In this document: positions 13,918-46,389 of the stretch, in pieces
Numbering within the stretch: position 1 is the first letter of the stretch
How the letters are laid out: each line of letters starts with the position of its first letter
From: a virus
Strand: one strand, 5' to 3'
Virus record (IMG/VR): IMGVR_UViG_3300027631_000002
Location: 115,627-179,626 of that record
DNA length: 64,000 nt
The notes under the pieces: generated by a model
Told to the model about the DNA's origin: nothing
Databases searched by the model: none
What the model saw: the letters and a program-made list of their open reading frames with translations, nothing else
Translations under genes and position numbers: made by a program

Positions 13918-14334
13918 TGCAGCATTTTTTGGTGCTTCTATTATAAAGTTTAAAGTCTTTTCATATAGAAATTGACTTACTTCAACTTCCATACCTACCT
14001 GCATCATTGTTTTAACTATTCTACCACATTCTGTATCAAGTACTTTAGATTTTAAAGTAAGTTTCTCAATCTTATTATTATTTAAGACAAATGTCATTCC
14101 TGTTATAGAACAACACACCTTTTTTAAGTATACCTGATGACTATGTTGATCATCGAGTGTAATATATTTCTGAATATCATCAATATCAAACTGTATTTTT
14201 TTACTACCTTCTAAAAGATAATTTAATTTTATCTCACGATAAACAGATTTCCAAGTTGGATAACTAGAAAGTGCTAAATTATAATCATCAAATTCTAAAT
14301 CATCTGCTAATATAACATCAAATAAATAGTCCAT
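13915..14334 (-). CDS. Hypothetical protein
   Basis: ORF coupled to the rnr stop; contains YREIKLNYLL. Confidence 0.65.
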   Translation of the reverse strand: MDYLFDVILADDLEFDDYNLALSSYPTWKSVYREIKLNYLLEGSKKIQFDIDDIQKYITLDDQHSHQVYLKKVCCSITGMTFVLNNNKIEKLTLKSKVLDTECGRIVKTMMQVGMEVEVSQFLYEKTLNFIIEAPKNAA

Positions 14335-16217
14335 TAGAACAATTCAAAATCGATTTGTTTTCTGTCTAGATCAACTGATTTAACAATTACTTTTACTTCA
14401 TCACCTAATCTTACTGATCCACCTGATTTTAAATTAACTGTATAGTTTTCTGCATCTACTTTATGATTTCCATTATATCTAACCATACCTTCACATTTAC
14501 TTTCAATAAGTTCAACATACATACCCCAATCGGTTACTCCTGATATAATTCCATCAAATACTTGTCCGATTTTATCTTCTAAGAATTCAATCTGTTTATA
14601 TTTAATAGAATCTCTTTGAGCTTTTGCTGCTAAGATTTCTCTTTCAGAACACCATTTTGCCATACCTTCAATCTTTTGAGGACTTCCATTAGATTTCTTA
14701 TTTAAAAAGTCTAATAGAACTCTATGAGTGATTAAGTCTGGATATCTTCTGATTGGTGATGTAAAGTGAGAATAATGAGTAAACCCTAATCCATAGTGTC
14801 CAGAGTTTACTATTGTATAACTTGCTTTAGACATACATCTTGTGATTAAAGTTTCAATCATATTTTCTTCTGGTTTACCTTTTATGTCAGCAACTAGTTC
14901 ATTTATAGATTTTTTCAAATCTTGTGTATTTTCAACAACATCTAAAGTATATCCAAAATTCTTACATATTAGAGAAAGTGCTTCTAACTTCTCAACATTA
15001 GGAGTACTATGTACTCTATAAACATTGTGATACTTCGCATCATAAAGAAGTTTTGCAACTAATTTATTGGCAAGTAACATATATTCTTCAATTAGTTTAT
15101 TTGCATCTTTCTGTTCTTTGAAGAAAACTCCAATAGGTTTCTTAGTAGTTGGCTCTAATTTGAATCTAACTTCTATACCACCCATTTCGATAGAACCATC
15201 ACTGATTCTTTGTTTTCTCATTTTCTTAGCAATAGTATCTAATAATAATATTTCGGTTTTGAAATCTCCTTCTTTACCTTCAATTATTTCTTGAGCTTCT
15301 TCATAAGAATATCTTCTATCTGAGTGTATTATAGTTTTTCCAAACCATTTATCTAATAGTTTTCCATCACTATCTAATTTAACTATAACTGAGAAACAAA
15401 GTTTATCTTCATTAGGTCTTAACGAACATACTCCATTACTTAATCTCTCTGGTAACATTGGTACACATCTATCAACTAAGTAAACTGATGTTGCTCTTTT
15501 AATAGCTTCTTCATCAATTATTCCACCTTCTTTAACATAGTGTGAAACATCTGCAATATGTATACCTACTTCTACTGTATTATCATCAAGTATATTAACC
15601 GAAAGAGCGTCGTCAAAATCTTTGGCGTCGACTGGGTCAATTGTAAATGTTGTGATATTTCTTAAATCTCGTCTGTTACTGATTTCTGATTCGTGAATTG
15701 TGAAGTCTATCAATTCCGCCTCGGCTTCTACCATTAAAGGAAAGTTGTTTGGTAAACCGTACTCATACATAATTGAGTTCATTTCTGCATTATTTTCACC
15801 TGAACTACCAAGTATCTCTACTATTTTTGCTTTTGGTGATTTTGTTCCTGGTTCCCAGTCGATTAGTTCGACAAGAACTTTTTGATCGTGTATTGCATCG
15901 TTTTCTCCTTTTATATAAAAGTCGACACCTATTTTTTGACTGTCTGGTACTACAAAGATTAGTCTTTTATTTTCTTTGTTTATTTGTACTTTACCAACAA
16001 ATTGTGTTCTGAATCTTTCGAGAACTTCAATAACTTCGGCTTCAATTTTATTGTTCTTAGTTATTGTTTTAACTTTAACTTTATCACCATTAAGTGAGTT
16101 AAGTGTATTTTTCTTAAATATGAAGAGATTTTTATCTCCTATATCTATTGAGGCATTTCCGCTGTTTGCGAAATCGATAGTGCCCTCAAAAACACTATCT
16201 TCTTTAATTTTATTCAT
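14334..16217 (-). CDS. rnr: Ribonuclease R (RNB family)
   Basis: Cold-shock-like N-terminus, catalytic TIDPVDAKDFDDA, HFTSPIRRYPDL, C-terminal S1 domain. Confidence 0.95.
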   Translation of the reverse strand: MNKIKEDSVFEGTIDFANSGNASIDIGDKNLFIFKKNTLNSLNGDKVKVKTITKNNKIEAEVIEVLERFRTQFVGKVQINKENKRLIFVVPDSQKIGVDFYIKGENDAIHDQKVLVELIDWEPGTKSPKAKIVEILGSSGENNAEMNSIMYEYGLPNNFPLMVEAEAELIDFTIHESEISNRRDLRNITTFTIDPVDAKDFDDALSVNILDDNTVEVGIHIADVSHYVKEGGIIDEEAIKRATSVYLVDRCVPMLPERLSNGVCSLRPNEDKLCFSVIVKLDSDGKLLDKWFGKTIIHSDRRYSYEEAQEIIEGKEGDFKTEILLLDTIAKKMRKQRISDGSIEMGGIEVRFKLEPTTKKPIGVFFKEQKDANKLIEEYMLLANKLVAKLLYDAKYHNVYRVHSTPNVEKLEALSLICKNFGYTLDVVENTQDLKKSINELVADIKGKPEENMIETLITRCMSKASYTIVNSGHYGLGFTHYSHFTSPIRRYPDLITHRVLLDFLNKKSNGSPQKIEGMAKWCSEREILAAKAQRDSIKYKQIEFLEDKIGQVFDGIISGVTDWGMYVELIESKCEGMVRYNGNHKVDAENYTVNLKSGGSVRLGDEVKVIVKSVDLDRKQIDFELF

Positions 16218-16605
16218 TATTTAATTTTTTTTTGTTTTTAGAAATGTTATCTACTCCATACTTCTGTACTAATGTTTTCTTCATCTTTTCTAAAACTTTT
16301 TTATTCTGTATCGGATAATCAACTCCGAAATTTTTTCTTAATGTTTCTTTTCTTTTAACTTCAGAACACTTTCTACAATAATAATCTCCCCAATCATTAT
16401 CATATTTTAAGTAGTTCTTATAGATTACTTCTTTTTCAATTCCACAAGTGTCACATTTACATTTGATTTTGTAATGTGATCCTTTCGGTAATAATTCAAC
16501 TGGAATTATAATTTCTTCACTTATATACACATCATATCCTAAATCATCATAATAGTTGTAATTTGACTCAGTGATTTTCACATTTATCTCTCTTGATAGG
16601 ATCAT
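16210..16605 (-). CDS. Zinc-finger protein resembling the N-terminal part of phage homing endonucleases; no nuclease domain visible
   Basis: CKCDTC..YCRKC followed by NFGVDY/KYGVDN repeats. Confidence 0.55.
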   Translation of the reverse strand: MILSREINVKITESNYNYYDDLGYDVYISEEIIIPVELLPKGSHYKIKCKCDTCGIEKEVIYKNYLKYDNDWGDYYCRKCSEVKRKETLRKNFGVDYPIQNKKVLEKMKKTLVQKYGVDNISKNKKKLNNE

Positions 16606-16803
16606 AAAAAACCGCATTTTTTTAAGTATTTATTAAATATAGCGTTTCTCCTCTAAAATTTTCACAAAGATAAAAAATCCAGTAGATATACCTAATAAAA
16701 ATCAAAAAAATTTTTTTACTATAAAGAATCCACCTTTAAAATTTTATTGTTTTCCAGGTTAAATATATACCATCGTAATAACTACAAAAAATAATTATTT
16801 TAA

Positions 16804-39524: not shown

Positions 39525-40595
39525 TTAAGAGTTGTATTTAAAATTATGATTCTCTTCAATATTTAGAAGAGTTTCGTAAATCAACTCTATAACATTTTTA
39601 ATATCTTCCTTATGAACAGTTTCACAAGTTGTGTGCATGTACTTGAGTGCTAAAGAAATAAGTGCAGAAGGAGTACCACCATTCGCATAAGCAAACGCAT
39701 CGGTATCTGTTCCAGTTGATCTTGAAGATGCTGCTAACTGGTGAGGGATTTTTTTAGCCGTTGCAGTATCCAAAATCAATTTTCTCAATTTATTATGAAC
39801 TGCAGGACCTCTTGTAATAACACCTCCATCACCAGCAATGTGATCACCTTGTTTACTTGCGGTATAGCAAGGTGATGATGTTTCATGACAAACATCAGTA
39901 ATAATAGCAACATTTGGTTTAATTGTGTGTGCAATCATTTCAGCACCACGTAATCCAATTTCTTCTTGAACTGAATTAACAATGTAAAGTTTAAATGGTA
40001 GTTTTTTACCTTTCTCTTTTAATTTTCTTGCAACCTCGGCAATCATAAAACCACCAATTCTATTGTCAAGAGCTCTACCAGAGTAGTAATCTTTACCAAG
40101 TTTCATCAACTCATCTTTAAAAGTAACTACAGTACCAACTTGAATACCCATCTTGGCAACATCCTCTTTTGAAGAAGCACCAATATCGATAAAAATTGAA
40201 CTTAAATCAACCTCTTTCTTTCTATCAGCAATATGTATCGCTGGATGTCCAAAGACGCCTGTAACGACTCCTTTTTCTCCCCATAGATTTACTCTCATAG
40301 AAGGAGCAATTTGTACGTCAGAGCCACCATTTCTGATAACTCTAATATATCCTTTTGAGTCAATGTAGTTTACAAACCAACTGATTTCATCAGAGTGTGC
40401 TTCGATAACAACTTTAAAGTCAGACTCTAAATTACCGGTAACACCATAAGCAGTACCATAATTATCAAGTTCTACAGAATCGACATACTTTTCAATATTG
40501 TCCATCCAAACTTTTTGTCCACCTAATTCATACTCAAAACCTGTTGGAGAAGTACTGTTCAAGTACTCTTTTAAAAACTTTTTGTTTAATTTCAT
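39525..40595 (-). CDS. M42 family aminopeptidase (TET/FrvX-like)
   Basis: AHSDEI, ALDNRIG, QEEIGLRGA, DVCH, YMHT metal-ligand motifs. Confidence 0.9.
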   Translation of the reverse strand: MKLNKKFLKEYLNSTSPTGFEYELGGQKVWMDNIEKYVDSVELDNYGTAYGVTGNLESDFKVVIEAHSDEISWFVNYIDSKGYIRVIRNGGSDVQIAPSMRVNLWGEKGVVTGVFGHPAIHIADRKKEVDLSSIFIDIGASSKEDVAKMGIQVGTVVTFKDELMKLGKDYYSGRALDNRIGGFMIAEVARKLKEKGKKLPFKLYIVNSVQEEIGLRGAEMIAHTIKPNVAIITDVCHETSSPCYTASKQGDHIAGDGGVITRGPAVHNKLRKLILDTATAKKIPHQLAASSRSTGTDTDAFAYANGGTPSALISLALKYMHTTCETVHKEDIKNVIELIYETLLNIEENHNFKYNS

Positions 40596-43094: not shown

Positions 43095-43275
43095 TAAAAT
43101 GACCTGGAATTGGAATATAATTGGTAATGATCAAAGATTAGTATTCAAAATACCACTAGAATCATTGAAGTCAAAAAATAGATGGTGGGAAATCTGGAAA
43201 AAGAATTCTTACAATTTTAAAAACAAATATATAAACAGACAAATAAAAATAATAAAAATATTCAACATTGAATAA
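43087..43275 (+). CDS. Small Trp-rich hypothetical protein
   Basis: Overlaps the clamp stop and the IF3 start. Confidence 0.45.
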   Translation: MSSKMTWNWNIIGNDQRLVFKIPLESLKSKNRWWEIWKKNSYNFKNKYINRQIKIIKIFNIE

Positions 43276-43801
43276 AAAACAACTAAATTCTAAAAGAAAA
43301 CACAAAATAAATGATGATATTAAGTCATTTGAAGTTAGACTAATCGTTACAGGTGCCGCACCAGAAGTGATGAAGACTAAAGATGCACTTCGTTTAGCAG
43401 ATTCAGAAGGAAAAGATCTTATTTTAATCAATGAGAATCAAGATCCACCTATTGCTAAAATCGAAGATTACGGTAAATTTCTTTATAACATCGAAAAGAT
43501 GTTAAAAGAACAAAAGAAAAATGCCATAAAATCAGAATTAAAAGAAATAAAACTCTCTTGTGAGATTTCAGACCATGACTTAGAAATTAAAGCTAAGAAA
43601 GGTAAAGAGTTTTTATTAGATAATGATAAGGTAAAATGTGTTATTCAATTAAAAGGAAGACAAAAAGGTAATCCAGATAGAGGACAACTAGTAATGCTAA
43701 AATTTGCCACAATGTTGGACGAGTTTGGATCTGCCGAAAATATACCAAAACTTGAGTCTAGTAAATGGCTTATGATATTAAAACCAAAAAAGAAGAACTA
43801 A
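43268..43801 (+). CDS. infC: Translation initiation factor IF-3 (TTG start)
   Basis: INDDI..EVRLI, DLILI..PPIAKIEDYGKFLY, KEIKL..DHDLEIK, DKVK..KGRQ. Confidence 0.9.
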   Translation: MNKKQLNSKRKHKINDDIKSFEVRLIVTGAAPEVMKTKDALRLADSEGKDLILINENQDPPIAKIEDYGKFLYNIEKMLKEQKKNAIKSELKEIKLSCEISDHDLEIKAKKGKEFLLDNDKVKCVIQLKGRQKGNPDRGQLVMLKFATMLDEFGSAENIPKLESSKWLMILKPKKKN

Positions 43802-43821: not shown

Positions 43822-43848
43822 AAACTTTTCTATCATGAATCATATAAT
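43822..43848 (+). promoter_or_regulatory. Putative early/middle promoter AAAC-N17/18-TATAAT (representative copy)
   Basis: Recurs before the gp55 region (8779), dam, the lipoprotein, 37018, 40677 and the clamp on the + strand, and before the clamp loader, M42 and primase on the - strand. Confidence 0.65.
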
Positions 43849-43852
43849 ATTT

Positions 43853-45313
43853 ATGACAAAGGATGAAAAAAGACAAAGAATAGAACAGCTGAAAATACAA
43901 GCAGTTCAGTTAAAGAAAGATGTTGAGTATTACAATGCAATGCAGACAGCTCTAAAATTGGTATTAAATGGTAGCTATGTCTAACCCCCACTACGTTATG
44001 TGGTGGGGGTTAGACATAAAAAAAACGGAGCATTTGCAACTGCCTACTTCATATTATATAATAATCACGTAGCAGGTACAATAACGGCACAAGGTCGTGA
44101 TTTAACAAAAACAATGGATAGAGTAAATGAAGATTATTGGTATAACCAATGGCATCTTGATTTTGATGTACATGATAAAGTAGGAATTAAAAATGTTACT
44201 CAAATTGATAAAAGTGAGCATGTGAGTATTTATGCAGATACTGACTCATTATTTGTATCATTTAAACCGGCAATCGATCATTGTGATTGGAATAATCTAG
44301 TTTTAAGTGAGATTGATTCTATAGATAAAAAGTTTATTGTTCTTTCAAAAGCAAAAGTAAAACATAATAATCCGAATTGTGTTGCAGTTGTTCATTCAGT
44401 AGATGAGTTAAAAGATACTATCTGTAATGGTTATGACTTATTAGTATTTGATGGACATTTCATTAAAGATAGAAATCTTAATGGTATGATAAATGATGGT
44501 GTATTTACATCAGAAATAAAATGGAATTGGACTAGTGAATTAGAACTAATTCAAGGTTTAGATCATTTCAGATATGGTGGATATTTCAAACAATGTTTAG
44601 AAGATTATGCTGCTTCATTTGGAGTAGAGAATAAAGAAGACTTTGAGTTAGAGAAAATCTCTGAATCTATTATCAATATAGCCAAAAAGAAATATATTCA
44701 ACATATTGTACATGAGGATGGTATCAACTTTGATCCTATGACTTATATATTCCCTAAAGGAGTTGAACTTGTACGTTCATCCACACCTTTATTTGCAAGA
44801 GATAAGATTGTAGATATTGTAAGATACTTATTTTCTAATCCAGATACATTCAACATTAAAGAATTATTGAAATTAGTTAAGAATTTAAGAAAAGAATTTG
44901 AATTAGCAGATATTGATGATATTGCAATGCAGTCTTCTTGTTCTAACTATGATGCTAAGATTATTGATGATAAGAGTTTGCCTTTAAGATATGTAAATGG
45001 TTCACATTTTGCAGTCAAAGCGGCGGCTTATCATAATTACTTATTAAATTTGGATAGAGTAGCACAACAGAAATATGAATTTATTAAATCGGGTACAAAG
45101 ATTAAGTATTATGTTTGTAAGGATAAAACTGTGAATGATCAGTTTGCTTATATGAGAGGTTCATACCCTCATGAGTTCGCTCCACAGATAGATTATGACG
45201 AACAGTTCGCGAAAGCTATACTTTCCCCGATCAATTCAATTATCGAACCATTAGGTTTACCTGAAATAACTAAACGATTGTCGGTAATAATGGACATATT
45301 CAATGGCTTCTAA
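43853..45313 (+). CDS. gp43: Family B DNA polymerase C-terminal half, interrupted by a 48-nt in-frame insert containing a stop (ORF1 43853..43984, ORF2 to 45313)
   Basis: ORF1 ends QTALKLVLNGSY-V*; the frame resumes at GAFATAYF..TITAQGR; IYADTDSLF, AKKKY and KGVELVRSSTP follow. Confidence 0.88.
43976..44026 (+). other. 19-bp GC-rich hairpin plus A7C spacer inside polymerase motif B
   Basis: TATGTCTAACCCCCACTAC-GTTAT-GTGGTGGGGGTTAGACATA, with one G.U pair. Confidence 0.9.
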
Positions 45314-45660: not shown

Positions 45661-46389
45661 TTATGTTTTTGCTACTACCTTATCTTCTTGAAATGTGAAG
45701 AAATTTCCTTCTATTACAACATCTTTACCTCTTACAATAATAAATGATTGTCCTTTATAAACGATTAGGTAGTCTGTATTCAACGATAATGATCCTTGTG
45801 AGTGAACTTTCACTTTTCTTGTTGATTCGCTAATAACTGCTTTATCATAAGGTTTAACTTGAATAGTTACTTCTTTACCTAAGTAAATAAATTTCCCATC
45901 GATTCCAGAAATATCTTCTTCAACTGTTGGCGGAATAAAGTTTACTGATATTCCTTTCTTTTCTTGTAATGATTGTTTAAAAAATCTTAAAGAATCTTGT
46001 TCTCCTACATTTCCTCTTCTAGAAGTATTTATTAAAACTGGTAAAGTAATACGTTTAAAGTATCTACCTTTCCAGTGATATATCTCTTTCATATTATTAG
46101 TCATATAGTGATAGAATGCGGCTTCTGTTCTAATAGAGTTTTCTCTAATTATTGATTTGAATACCGTATAGTTATTTACCATTTTACTGATATATTCGCT
46201 ACTTATAATCTGACCTTCTATGTTTAAATCTTGATTCACTCCATATTTAAAACCAAATGGCTCATATACCTCTTGGATATATTCCTTGATTTTACCATTT
46301 AACCAATCTATTGAGTTAAATTCACCATATTTCTTGGTCATTACGTTTCCTAATTTTAAGGAACTTTCATTTAATTTGATCCATTTCAT
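45661..46389 (-). CDS. Tagged putative PD-(D/E)xK nuclease
   Basis: MKWIKLNES; GNVGE..EEDISGIDG..TIQVKP. Confidence 0.5.
   Translation of the reverse strand: MKWIKLNESSLKLGNVMTKKYGEFNSIDWLNGKIKEYIQEVYEPFGFKYGVNQDLNIEGQIISSEYISKMVNNYTVFKSIIRENSIRTEAAFYHYMTNNMKEIYHWKGRYFKRITLPVLINTSRRGNVGEQDSLRFFKQSLQEKKGISVNFIPPTVEEDISGIDGKFIYLGKEVTIQVKPYDKAVISESTRKVKVHSQGSLSLNTDYLIVYKGQSFIIVRGKDVVIEGNFFTFQEDKVVAKT

Follow-up and report, generated by a model that had tools for sequence, protein, structure and literature searches.

A family of hairpin inserts in motif B of huge-phage PolB genes: candidate homing-endonuclease-linked translational bypass cassettes

The 64,000-nt stretch analysed here (positions 115,627 to 179,626 of the IMG/VR virus record IMGVR_UViG_3300027631_000002; referred to as the window) represents the final 64 kb of a viral contig with a CheckV completeness of approximately 30%. 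It contains a gene for the C-terminal module (C-module) of a family B DNA polymerase (PolB) which is interrupted in its catalytic motif B by a 48-nt hairpin insert. Comparison with related loci indicates that this insert is a member of a family of hairpin cassettes in a T4-like clade of huge phages with AT-rich genomes. We consider it probable that these cassettes direct a programmed translational bypass and are linked to a homing endonuclease, analogous to, but not detectably homologous with, the MobA/gene 60 element of phage T4. A gene-60-like bypass had already been the leading idea of an initial annotation of the locus, and it is the reading which the comparative data support best. It is favoured because the inserts form a family with matched triplets, nearby stop codons, no frame constraint, covariation on the sense strand, a single copy per genome and linkage to an endonuclease.

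The interrupted gene comprises the following features:

43853 to 43978, plus strand: open reading frame 1 (ORF1), the first 42 codons of the PolB C-module, from the MTKDEK start to the Tyr of motif B
43976 to 43978, plus strand: TAT codon for the Tyr of KxxxNGSYG, the candidate take-off codon, with whose 3 nt the 5' arm of the hairpin begins
43976 to 44018, plus strand: 19-bp hairpin with a C5/G5 core, arms 43976 to 43994 and 44000 to 44018, 5-nt loop 43995 to 43999
43979 to 44026, plus strand: coding gap of 48 nt, missing from the closest insert-free relatives
43982 to 43984, plus strand: in-frame TAA, two codons past the take-off codon and within the 5' arm
44019 to 44026, plus strand: A7C spacer directly 3' of the stem
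44027 to 45313, plus strand: ORF2, which completes the PolB C-module with GAFAT..., motif C (IYADTDS) and the thumb (428 codons and a stop)

Starting from the ATG at 43853, ORF1 runs through 42 codons to the Tyr codon TAT, which is followed by GTC and TAA and thus closes a 43-aa ORF. An in-frame ATG at 43835 represents an alternative start (the 49-aa ORF of the ORF list), while the start kept in the relatives is the equivalent of 43853, MTK(D/E)EK. The insert separates the Tyr from the Gly codon of motif B (NGSY|GAF), and GGA GCA TTT follows at 44027, exactly 48 nt past the Tyr codon and in the same frame as ORF1. The removal of 43979 to 44026 yields NGSYGAF exactly as in the relatives L024 (96% amino-acid identity), L025 (93%), LR745206 and LR756502, which read ...LKLVLNGSYGAFAT... 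without a break, and the insert boundaries are therefore independently confirmed by uninterrupted relatives. The 43-aa ORF, the 48-nt gap, the 19-bp hairpin and the A7C spacer had all been described in the initial annotation and are present as described.

The 19 base pairs of the hairpin include one G.U pair, and its predicted free energy of -36 kcal/mol compares with -16.3 +/- 2.6 kcal/mol in shuffled sequences (z = -7.7; none of 200 shuffles was as good). With a GC content of 29% in the contig and of 23 to 35% in the window, it is the sole C-run/G-run hairpin of at least 8 bp in the whole 179.6-kb contig. An assembly artefact was excluded, since over 25 metagenome assemblies, independent of each other, contain homologous inserts. 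A dispersed repeat or a MITE- or REP-like element was likewise rejected: window and contig contain the hairpin only once, and in near-complete relatives it is specific to polB.

The read-through translation matches the Pfam model DNA_pol_B (PF00136, E = 3.5e-13). A single-sequence search of the PDB with an intact PolB homologue gave no match, whereas a profile of intact homologues placed the interrupted stretch at motif B (region III) in family B polymerases of known structure, namely 1s5j residues 541-609, HSV UL30 and RB69 gp43 residues 553-608; IYADTDS aligned to motif C in the same profile. The insert thus sits in the fingers helix which carries the catalytic Lys, Asn, Tyr and Gly, and extra translated residues at this position would not be tolerated.

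A scan of IMG/VR provided 71 further loci besides the window and the complete relatives, and codon-aware mapping yielded 66 usable loci and 28 unique insert sequences (the unique elements to which the counts below refer). Inserts of 36 to 48 nt were detected in 40 of the 66 mapped loci and in seven intein-type loci that had at first been set aside, so that approximately 47 of 74 related huge-phage C-module alleles carry such a hairpin insert. The four complete huge-phage relatives possess one uninterrupted ORF. Presence varies even between close relatives of the window: L023, 96% identical to the window protein, contains the insert, while L024 and L025 lack it. The inserts follow one of six codons (Ala, Leu, Val, Gly, Ser or Tyr) in a ten-codon stretch from Ala to Tyr within Q-L-A-L-K-L-V-L-N-G-S-Y-G, QLALKLVLNGSYG. 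The gap is free of any reading-frame constraint, because all three length classes modulo 3 occur (8:10:10), and the elements of L071 and L072 differ by nothing except a single G in the gap.

It is hardly credible, therefore, that the insert is translated, whether by readthrough, an alternative code or paired frameshifts, to give some 13 to 16 extra residues in motif B. The window's 48 nt are in frame and contain a single TAA and a slippery A8 run, as such a model would like to see. However, three does not divide the length of 20 of the 28 unique inserts, and no conservation is seen in the inserted sequence at the protein level. The position moreover lies inside the catalytic fingers helix, and ordinary genes in the window end with TAA. 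Lineage-variable inserts at six sites and in all modulo-3 lengths rule out models of this type.

Some alleles contain a second kind of selfish element. An intein at PolB motif C (DTD|S/C, ending ...THTFIANDxLVHN) was found in L061, L068, L074, L080, L090-L092 and L081, approximately 70 codons past motif B, and is possibly also present in L071-L073. Seven intein alleles hold the motif-B hairpin insert as well, i.e. one polB gene with two different selfish elements. A further 15 viral contigs with a TAACCCCCAC...GTGGGGGTTA core were rejected as unrelated to this element; they have a higher GC content and mostly intergenic hairpins. In two such unrelated contigs of 40% GC (L018 770-794 and L021 311-335) the same hairpin core lies 17 nt past an in-frame stop, in a frame that is open for 106 codons through the core.

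The elements share one architecture: the last sense codon, 5 to 6 nt (typically NNT-TAR), the stem, the loop, a spacer and one triplet, after which the ORF resumes. A typical stem has 10 to 12 bp with about five C:G pairs, a loop of 3 to 6 nt and a 3' spacer of 4 to 8 nt. Exceptions are the elements of the window and of L036, whose 19-bp stem takes in the take-off codon, and those of L071/L072. The G5 arm ends 4 to 8 nt before the landing triplet in most elements and, counted from the G-run, 13 nt before it in the window and 12 nt in L036. The candidate take-off codon lies 33 to 42 codons from the start. ORF1 itself is conserved and rich in Lys and Glu; it also forms part of the fingers domain and is present in insert-free alleles.

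The stems covary strongly. The 28 elements contain 23 distinct 5' arms, which pair completely with their own partners as opposed to 60% with shuffled partners. Of the properties that the initial annotation proposed to compare across homologous loci, covariation of the hairpin is present, the position shifts over six codons and the gap ranges from 36 to 48 nt. Furthermore, 26 of the 28 elements form a more stable hairpin on the sense RNA than on the antisense strand (average difference -3.5 kcal/mol; p = 8e-6), and 32 G.U pairs across the elements would be A.C on the opposite strand. The sense-strand bias and the G.U pairs indicate that the hairpin is selected in the mRNA and not as a DNA palindrome.

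These observations bear on the proposal, also raised in the initial annotation, of a DNA-level switch in which the palindrome is precisely deleted by slippage in some genomes during replication and only those copies express PolB, the insert being retained in the packaged or assembled form. Perfect palindromes are indeed prone to deletion, repeats of 1 to 3 nt flank the inserts, and very close relatives differ in the presence of the insert. However, in addition to the preference for the sense RNA, the flanking repeats are too short for efficient deletion, and an essential early enzyme cannot hinge on a rare deletion in every infection. The stop codons and the codon phase would moreover be irrelevant to a switch, and presence and absence are accounted for by gene conversion with mosaic flanks (see below). 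We thus regard a DNA-level switch as highly improbable.

In 21 of the 28 unique elements the first two bases are the same in the codon that precedes the gap and in the gap's final triplet (6.9% expected, p = 3e-19; this binomial value, like that for the stop codons below, overstates the significance because unique elements are not phylogenetically independent). Stated conservatively at the level of sites, five of the six are fully matched and the sixth is partly matched. The candidate take-off codons and presumed landing triplets are as follows:

Ala site: GCT, landing on GCA or GCT
Leu site: CTT or CTC, landing on CTA
Val site: GTT, landing on GTA
Ser site: TCT, landing on TCA
Gly site: GGT, landing on GGT
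Tyr site, two of nine unique elements: TAT, landing on TAA
Tyr site, non-cognate pairs: TAT with AAC (the window's element, L026, L027, L036); TAT with AGC (L023)
Tyr site, further non-cognate pairs: TAT with CAA (L054); TAC with GAC (L086)

A change from NNT to NNA accounts for 17 of the 21 matched pairs. At the Leu site CTT or CTC is always combined with CTA, while insert-free alleles have TTA or TTG there in 9 of 21 cases. Matched triplets of this kind appear to be the signature of a single peptidyl-tRNA re-pairing at both sites, which is also the pattern of gene 60 and its homologues. A stop codon lies within two codons after take-off in 23 of the 28 unique elements (14.5% expected, p = 2e-15).

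The insert might instead be removed from the RNA, an option also listed in the initial annotation, as a new class of minimal introns for which a phage or host endonuclease and an RNA ligase would recognise the C5/G5 hairpin with its short flanks and excise it from the mRNA, so that the ORF is continuous by the time of translation. Selection of a covarying structure on the sense RNA and gap lengths without frame constraint would be expected here too, the spacers on either side of the stem are short and fairly constant, and no cognate landing triplet would be needed, which fits the Tyr-site elements, that of the window included, better than bypass does. Removal from the RNA leaves unexplained, however, why in-phase two-base matches occur at all six sites (21/28 overall, 2/9 at the Tyr site) and why a stop follows the 5' junction within two codons in 23/28. 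The range of the 3' spacer (4 to 8 nt) is loose for a ruler-type enzyme, and a search for a known RNA family in Rfam gave none for the insert, the best matches being far below the gathering scores. To our knowledge, the splicing-out of a hairpin of 40 nt has no precedent in bacteria or phages. Taking both sides into account, excision from the RNA seems unlikely.

Both coding flanks of the insert are under purifying selection. Among insert-bearing alleles pN/pS is 0.19 to 0.25 for the last 30 codons of ORF1 and about 0.5 to 0.6 for the downstream 150 codons, where synonymous sites are saturated. The two 98%-complete insert-bearing genomes encode exactly one N-terminal module (N-module) and one C-module, and the latter is the interrupted one. 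A dead allele with an intact polB elsewhere in the genome, named in the initial annotation as an outcome that would speak against bypass, is therefore not what these genomes contain. Such a hairpin occurs only once in relatives of 483 kb and 242 kb, namely at polB; a 465-kb relative has one extra hairpin (the extra match in G002), which is terminator-like and lies between convergent genes.

PolB is already a split gene in this clade, but elsewhere than at the hairpin. In the annotated relatives the C-module is a free-standing ORF that starts approximately 40 codons before motif B (approximately 100 in LR756501), and the module with the exonuclease and motif A has an ORF of its own (about 500 to 515 aa) at a distance of about 95 to 130 kb. 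Besides the 515-aa N-module, weaker matches to the PolB exonuclease domain were observed in further ORFs of about 224 to 457 aa in G001 (at 344373 and 295024) and in W01, LR745206 (at 448590 and 381136).

A polymerase that already stems from two distant genes makes a further split conceivable, in which the 43-aa peptide and a separate downstream chain assemble, or are useless while another polymerase replicates the genome. Group 2.2 jumbo phages are described as encoding a minimal split Pol III alpha beside the family B polymerase (Iyer et al. 2021, PMC7824862). Against a two-chain or non-functional state, both halves are intact in approximately 47 alleles, purifying selection acts on the flanks in diverged alleles that bear the insert, and the 98%-complete genomes possess no spare C-module. 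An ATG or GTG after the insert is out of frame or absent in the Leu-site elements and in the 40-nt Tyr-site elements, the first available start in L040 lies past the Lys of motif B, and the break point shifts over six codons of one helix. The two-chain split put forward in the initial annotation is thus rejected for lack of a conserved in-frame start behind a moving break point, and we assign either state a very low probability.

Returning to the bypass cassette, its distribution suggests mobility. On the tree of C-modules (a quick IQ-TREE search) the state of the insert requires 18 changes compared to 19.8 with shuffled labels, i.e. it is scattered. L038 (Tyr site) and L039 (Ala site) encode identical C-module proteins and carry different inserts. 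L038 and L037 share 95 to 100% nucleotide identity from the landing site on, only 57 to 80% in ORF1, and are unrelated further upstream; the mosaic boundaries are sharp at the landing site. Three features of the window are relevant in this regard:

43890 to 44072, plus strand: L036-like patch of about 180 nt, 90 to 96% identical to L036, a presumed gene-conversion tract carrying the insert
43268 to 43801, plus strand: IF3-like gene that abuts ORF1 and contains both Pfam IF3 domains
16210 to 16617, minus strand: ORF of 135 aa that resembles the N-terminal zinc ribbon and KYGV repeats of the polB-linked endonuclease (see below), without HNH domain

The downstream protein of L036 is only 80% identical to that of the window, whose remaining polB C-module and upstream IF3 gene match L023 and L024. 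The cassette thus appears to move by gene conversion.

Among 38 insert-bearing loci, 21 have a divergent ORF of 285 to 367 aa that begins some 100 nt upstream of the start of ORF1, compared to none of 25 insert-free loci (Fisher p = 1.2e-6; the 38 are the insert-bearing loci with enough upstream sequence). It matches DUF7487 and the PHROG families 12131 and 3339, annotated as 'homing endonuclease', and contains a Cys4 ribbon and an invariant DHK...NLCxTK...NSxK block (DH..N..N). Pfam HNH models gave no match to its C-terminus alone, and Foldseek with the whole model gave none at E <= 0.001. The best structural matches to residues 175-280 were the HNH nucleases 4h9d (VIA-align; Z 7.2, rmsd 5.3, 87 aligned residues) and 5h0o (Z 6.4, rmsd 3.9, with 86 residues aligned); next came the HNH domains of Cap5, McrA and Cas9. 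Based on these model comparisons the linked ORF is predicted to encode an HNH (His-Me finger) homing endonuclease that is free-standing beside its target gene. Given the mosaic boundary at the landing site and the upstream linkage of the endonuclease, the exchanged unit thus seems to be [endonuclease]-[ORF1 replacement]-[hairpin], with the landing triplet as its boundary.

Two types of the endonuclease can be distinguished. The short type (about 285 aa; L023, L036, L059, L086, L093) accompanies mostly Tyr-, Ser- and Gly-site inserts, and the long type with extra KYGV repeats (about 365 aa; L040, L044, L053, L056, L084, L085, L037) mostly Leu-, Ala- and Val-site inserts, a possible sign that there are two lineages of the cassette, each with its own cut site. 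The sole related sequence in the window is the ORF at 16210-16617, with 34% identity over 117 aa to the polB-linked endonuclease, and it is likely an endonuclease remnant. The remnant shares 8 nt with the beginning of an ORF of 627 aa (14334-16217) that by eye resembles RNase R/RNB.

According to the proposed mechanism, the ribosome would translate the 42-codon ORF1 until the peptidyl-tRNA occupies the last sense codon (UAU in the window). There it would face a stop at the first or second codon ahead and a hairpin of very high stability, clamped by C5/G5, that begins 5 to 6 nt downstream of the last sense codon. The peptidyl-tRNA would then uncouple from the mRNA, 36 to 48 nt of mRNA would slide through, possibly driven by re-folding of the hairpin behind the ribosome, and decoding would restart 4 to 8 nt (plus the landing triplet) past the stem. 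At most sites the same tRNA can re-pair with the landing triplet, while in the Tyr-site subfamily the landing would be set mainly by geometry. By skipping the gap the ribosome would produce a single polypeptide ...LVLNGSY-GAFAT... with the junction peptide ...NGSYGAFATAYF.... At the DNA level the cassette may act as a selfish or immunity element that travels with the HNH homing endonuclease gene just upstream of ORF1. By breaking a highly conserved target it would protect the carrier from cleavage, as proposed for T4 MobA/gene 60, and the window copy would have arrived on the conversion tract of about 180 nt without an adjacent endonuclease. We infer bypass, endonuclease target and immunity role alike, the last of them by analogy with T4.

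Several observations weigh against this reading. The window locus itself has no adjacent endonuclease, since the IF3 gene occupies that position. Seven of the nine unique Tyr-site elements, including that of the window, have a non-cognate landing triplet. The initial annotation had pointed to the absence of a matched Tyr landing codon before GGA, and the triplet found there, AAC (44024-44026, the last of the A7C spacer), is non-cognate for tRNA-Tyr and does not fit matched re-pairing. The first-two-base matches could furthermore partly reflect cassette-borne flanks or 2-nt junction repeats. The stop mostly lies one codon past the A-site codon and not directly after take-off (at +1 in only four unique elements, L046, L053, L059 and one inferred from the total of 23/28), and 5 of the 28 elements lack a stop within two codons of take-off. 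Finally, the 'mini-SD' landing aid of gene 60 is probably not applicable in a genome without Shine-Dalgarno usage. Shine-Dalgarno motifs are depleted upstream of ORFs (2.3% of 133 ORFs compared to 5.9% in the background), and the G-run is paired within the hairpin.

Other landings considered for the Tyr site by eye (a TAT in the loop, GTN in the 3' arm, a four-base TA-N-C and TAA in the A-run) were rejected, none being consistent across the elements. Bypass with landing by hairpin geometry alone, without tRNA re-pairing or Shine-Dalgarno contact, would be a novel variant, for which the case is weaker; if true, it would be a mechanism distinct from that of gene 60. The tRNAs of the contig, which is about 30% complete, comprise one tRNA-Cys and two tRNA-Met and are uninformative on the take-off tRNA.

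The coding gap of T4 gene 60 was reportedly described together with a MobA homing-endonuclease cassette by Bonocora et al. in 2011. The huge-phage elements resemble it in several respects: a non-coding gap of about 40 to 50 nt in an essential replication gene which is itself split into separate genes; a short ORF1 before take-off (33 to 42 codons compared to 46); a take-off codon in or beside a stem-loop and, in most elements, a stop within two codons after take-off; triplets that are matched or wobble-matched in most elements; a single copy per genome; linkage to a free-standing HNH-type homing endonuclease just upstream; and repeated gain and loss, with 'hit-and-run' copies lacking the endonuclease and exchanged DNA that ends at the landing site. 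In contrast, the host gene is PolB at motif B and not a topoisomerase II, and the carriers form a clade of huge AT-rich phages. The hairpin, with its C5/G5 clamp, takes up almost all of the gap, the stop mostly lies at +2, and there are six take-off positions instead of the two of the gene 60 homologues. Shine-Dalgarno usage is absent, one subfamily has non-cognate landing, and the endonuclease is transcribed divergently.

Manning & Atkins (2022, bioRxiv 10.1101/2022.08.31.505936) describe homologues of gene 60 only in topoisomerase genes and mention no polymerase; matched re-pairing is a hallmark of gene 60 and these homologues, and the T4 MobA element is organised like the [endonuclease]-[ORF1 replacement]-[hairpin] unit. 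Sequence similarity to the T4 gene 60/MobA element is not detectable, and tblastn with the endonuclease finds no T4-like phage.

Short hairpin-prone inserts are also known from mitochondria, where Lang et al. in 2014 and Nosek et al. in 2015 are said to have described the 'byp' elements of Magnusiomyces capitatus. Like the inserts studied here, the byps (27 to 55 nt) are richer in GC than their AT-rich genome, have matched or loosely matched triplets and an undecodable or stop codon after take-off, and are mobile. However, byps are mitochondrial, present in dozens of copies per genome and in many genes, and without a link to homing endonucleases, whereas the huge-phage elements are single-copy and specific to polB. 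Phage and archaeal PolB inteins and endonuclease-bearing group I introns are likewise selfish elements in the most conserved polB motifs; they are removed after transcription so that the enzyme stays functional, and relatives within the clade have the motif C intein. In contrast to these, the element considered here is a hairpin of 36 to 48 nt without catalytic RNA or protein-splicing domain, and its removal is presumed to be ribosomal.

Split gp43 polymerases have reportedly been found in some T4-like phages by Petrov et al. in 2006, for example as genes 43A and 43B of Aeromonas phage Aeh1. Both there and here a family B replicative polymerase derives from two separate genes, but the huge-phage modules are about 95 to 130 kb apart and the hairpin is an additional interruption in the second gene. 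A full-text literature search, which returned gene 60 papers, a Streptomyces-phage candidate and surveys of huge phages, revealed no description of a PolB motif B interruption or of a huge-phage bypass cassette, and a review of jumbo phages mentions only the split Pol III alpha (PMC7824862). The comparison points to a family of coding-gap cassettes, linked to a homing endonuclease, that is independent of gene 60 and differs from it in architecture, and thus to a second natural family of bypass elements.

The nearest annotated relatives of the window are 'uncultured phage' genomes of 634 to 735 kb (LR745206, LR756502, LR756504 and LR756501); phages of Flavobacteriia and Prevotella (Lak) come next. 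These relatives and the missing Shine-Dalgarno motifs suggest, but do no more than suggest, a host among the Bacteroidota. The gene immediately upstream of the interrupted polB module is a phage-encoded homologue of translation initiation factor IF-3, and a gene of the M42 glutamyl-aminopeptidase family is located at 39525-40595 on the minus strand (Pfam E = 7e-73). PD-(D/E)xK-like motifs seen by eye in genes downstream of the polB C-module (45661-46389) were dismissed for lack of Pfam or PHROG support. Outside the window, GC-rich tRNA-like segments with a repeated ...GTAGTCTGTACGGGATTCGAACCC... end are clustered at contig positions 21443-22279 on the minus strand; ARAGORN predicts a single tRNA-Met in this cluster, and the segments may be intron-containing, split or degenerate tRNA genes.

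For decades, no natural example of efficient ribosomal bypassing over a long range was known from bacteria or phages other than T4 gene 60. If the huge-phage cassettes are an independent family, the combination of a homing endonuclease and a bypass cassette would be a recurrent route into the catalytic motifs of essential genes, recurring here with a different gene, different phages, a different hairpin architecture and six take-off codons. The approximately 28 natural variants would allow the needs of bypass to be dissected with regard to stem strength, spacers, cognate as opposed to non-cognate landing and the lack of Shine-Dalgarno pairing. For annotation it would mean that about two thirds of the PolB C-module genes in this clade of huge phages would be called broken or truncated and, PolB being a common phylogenetic marker, that mosaic cassettes would distort PolB trees.

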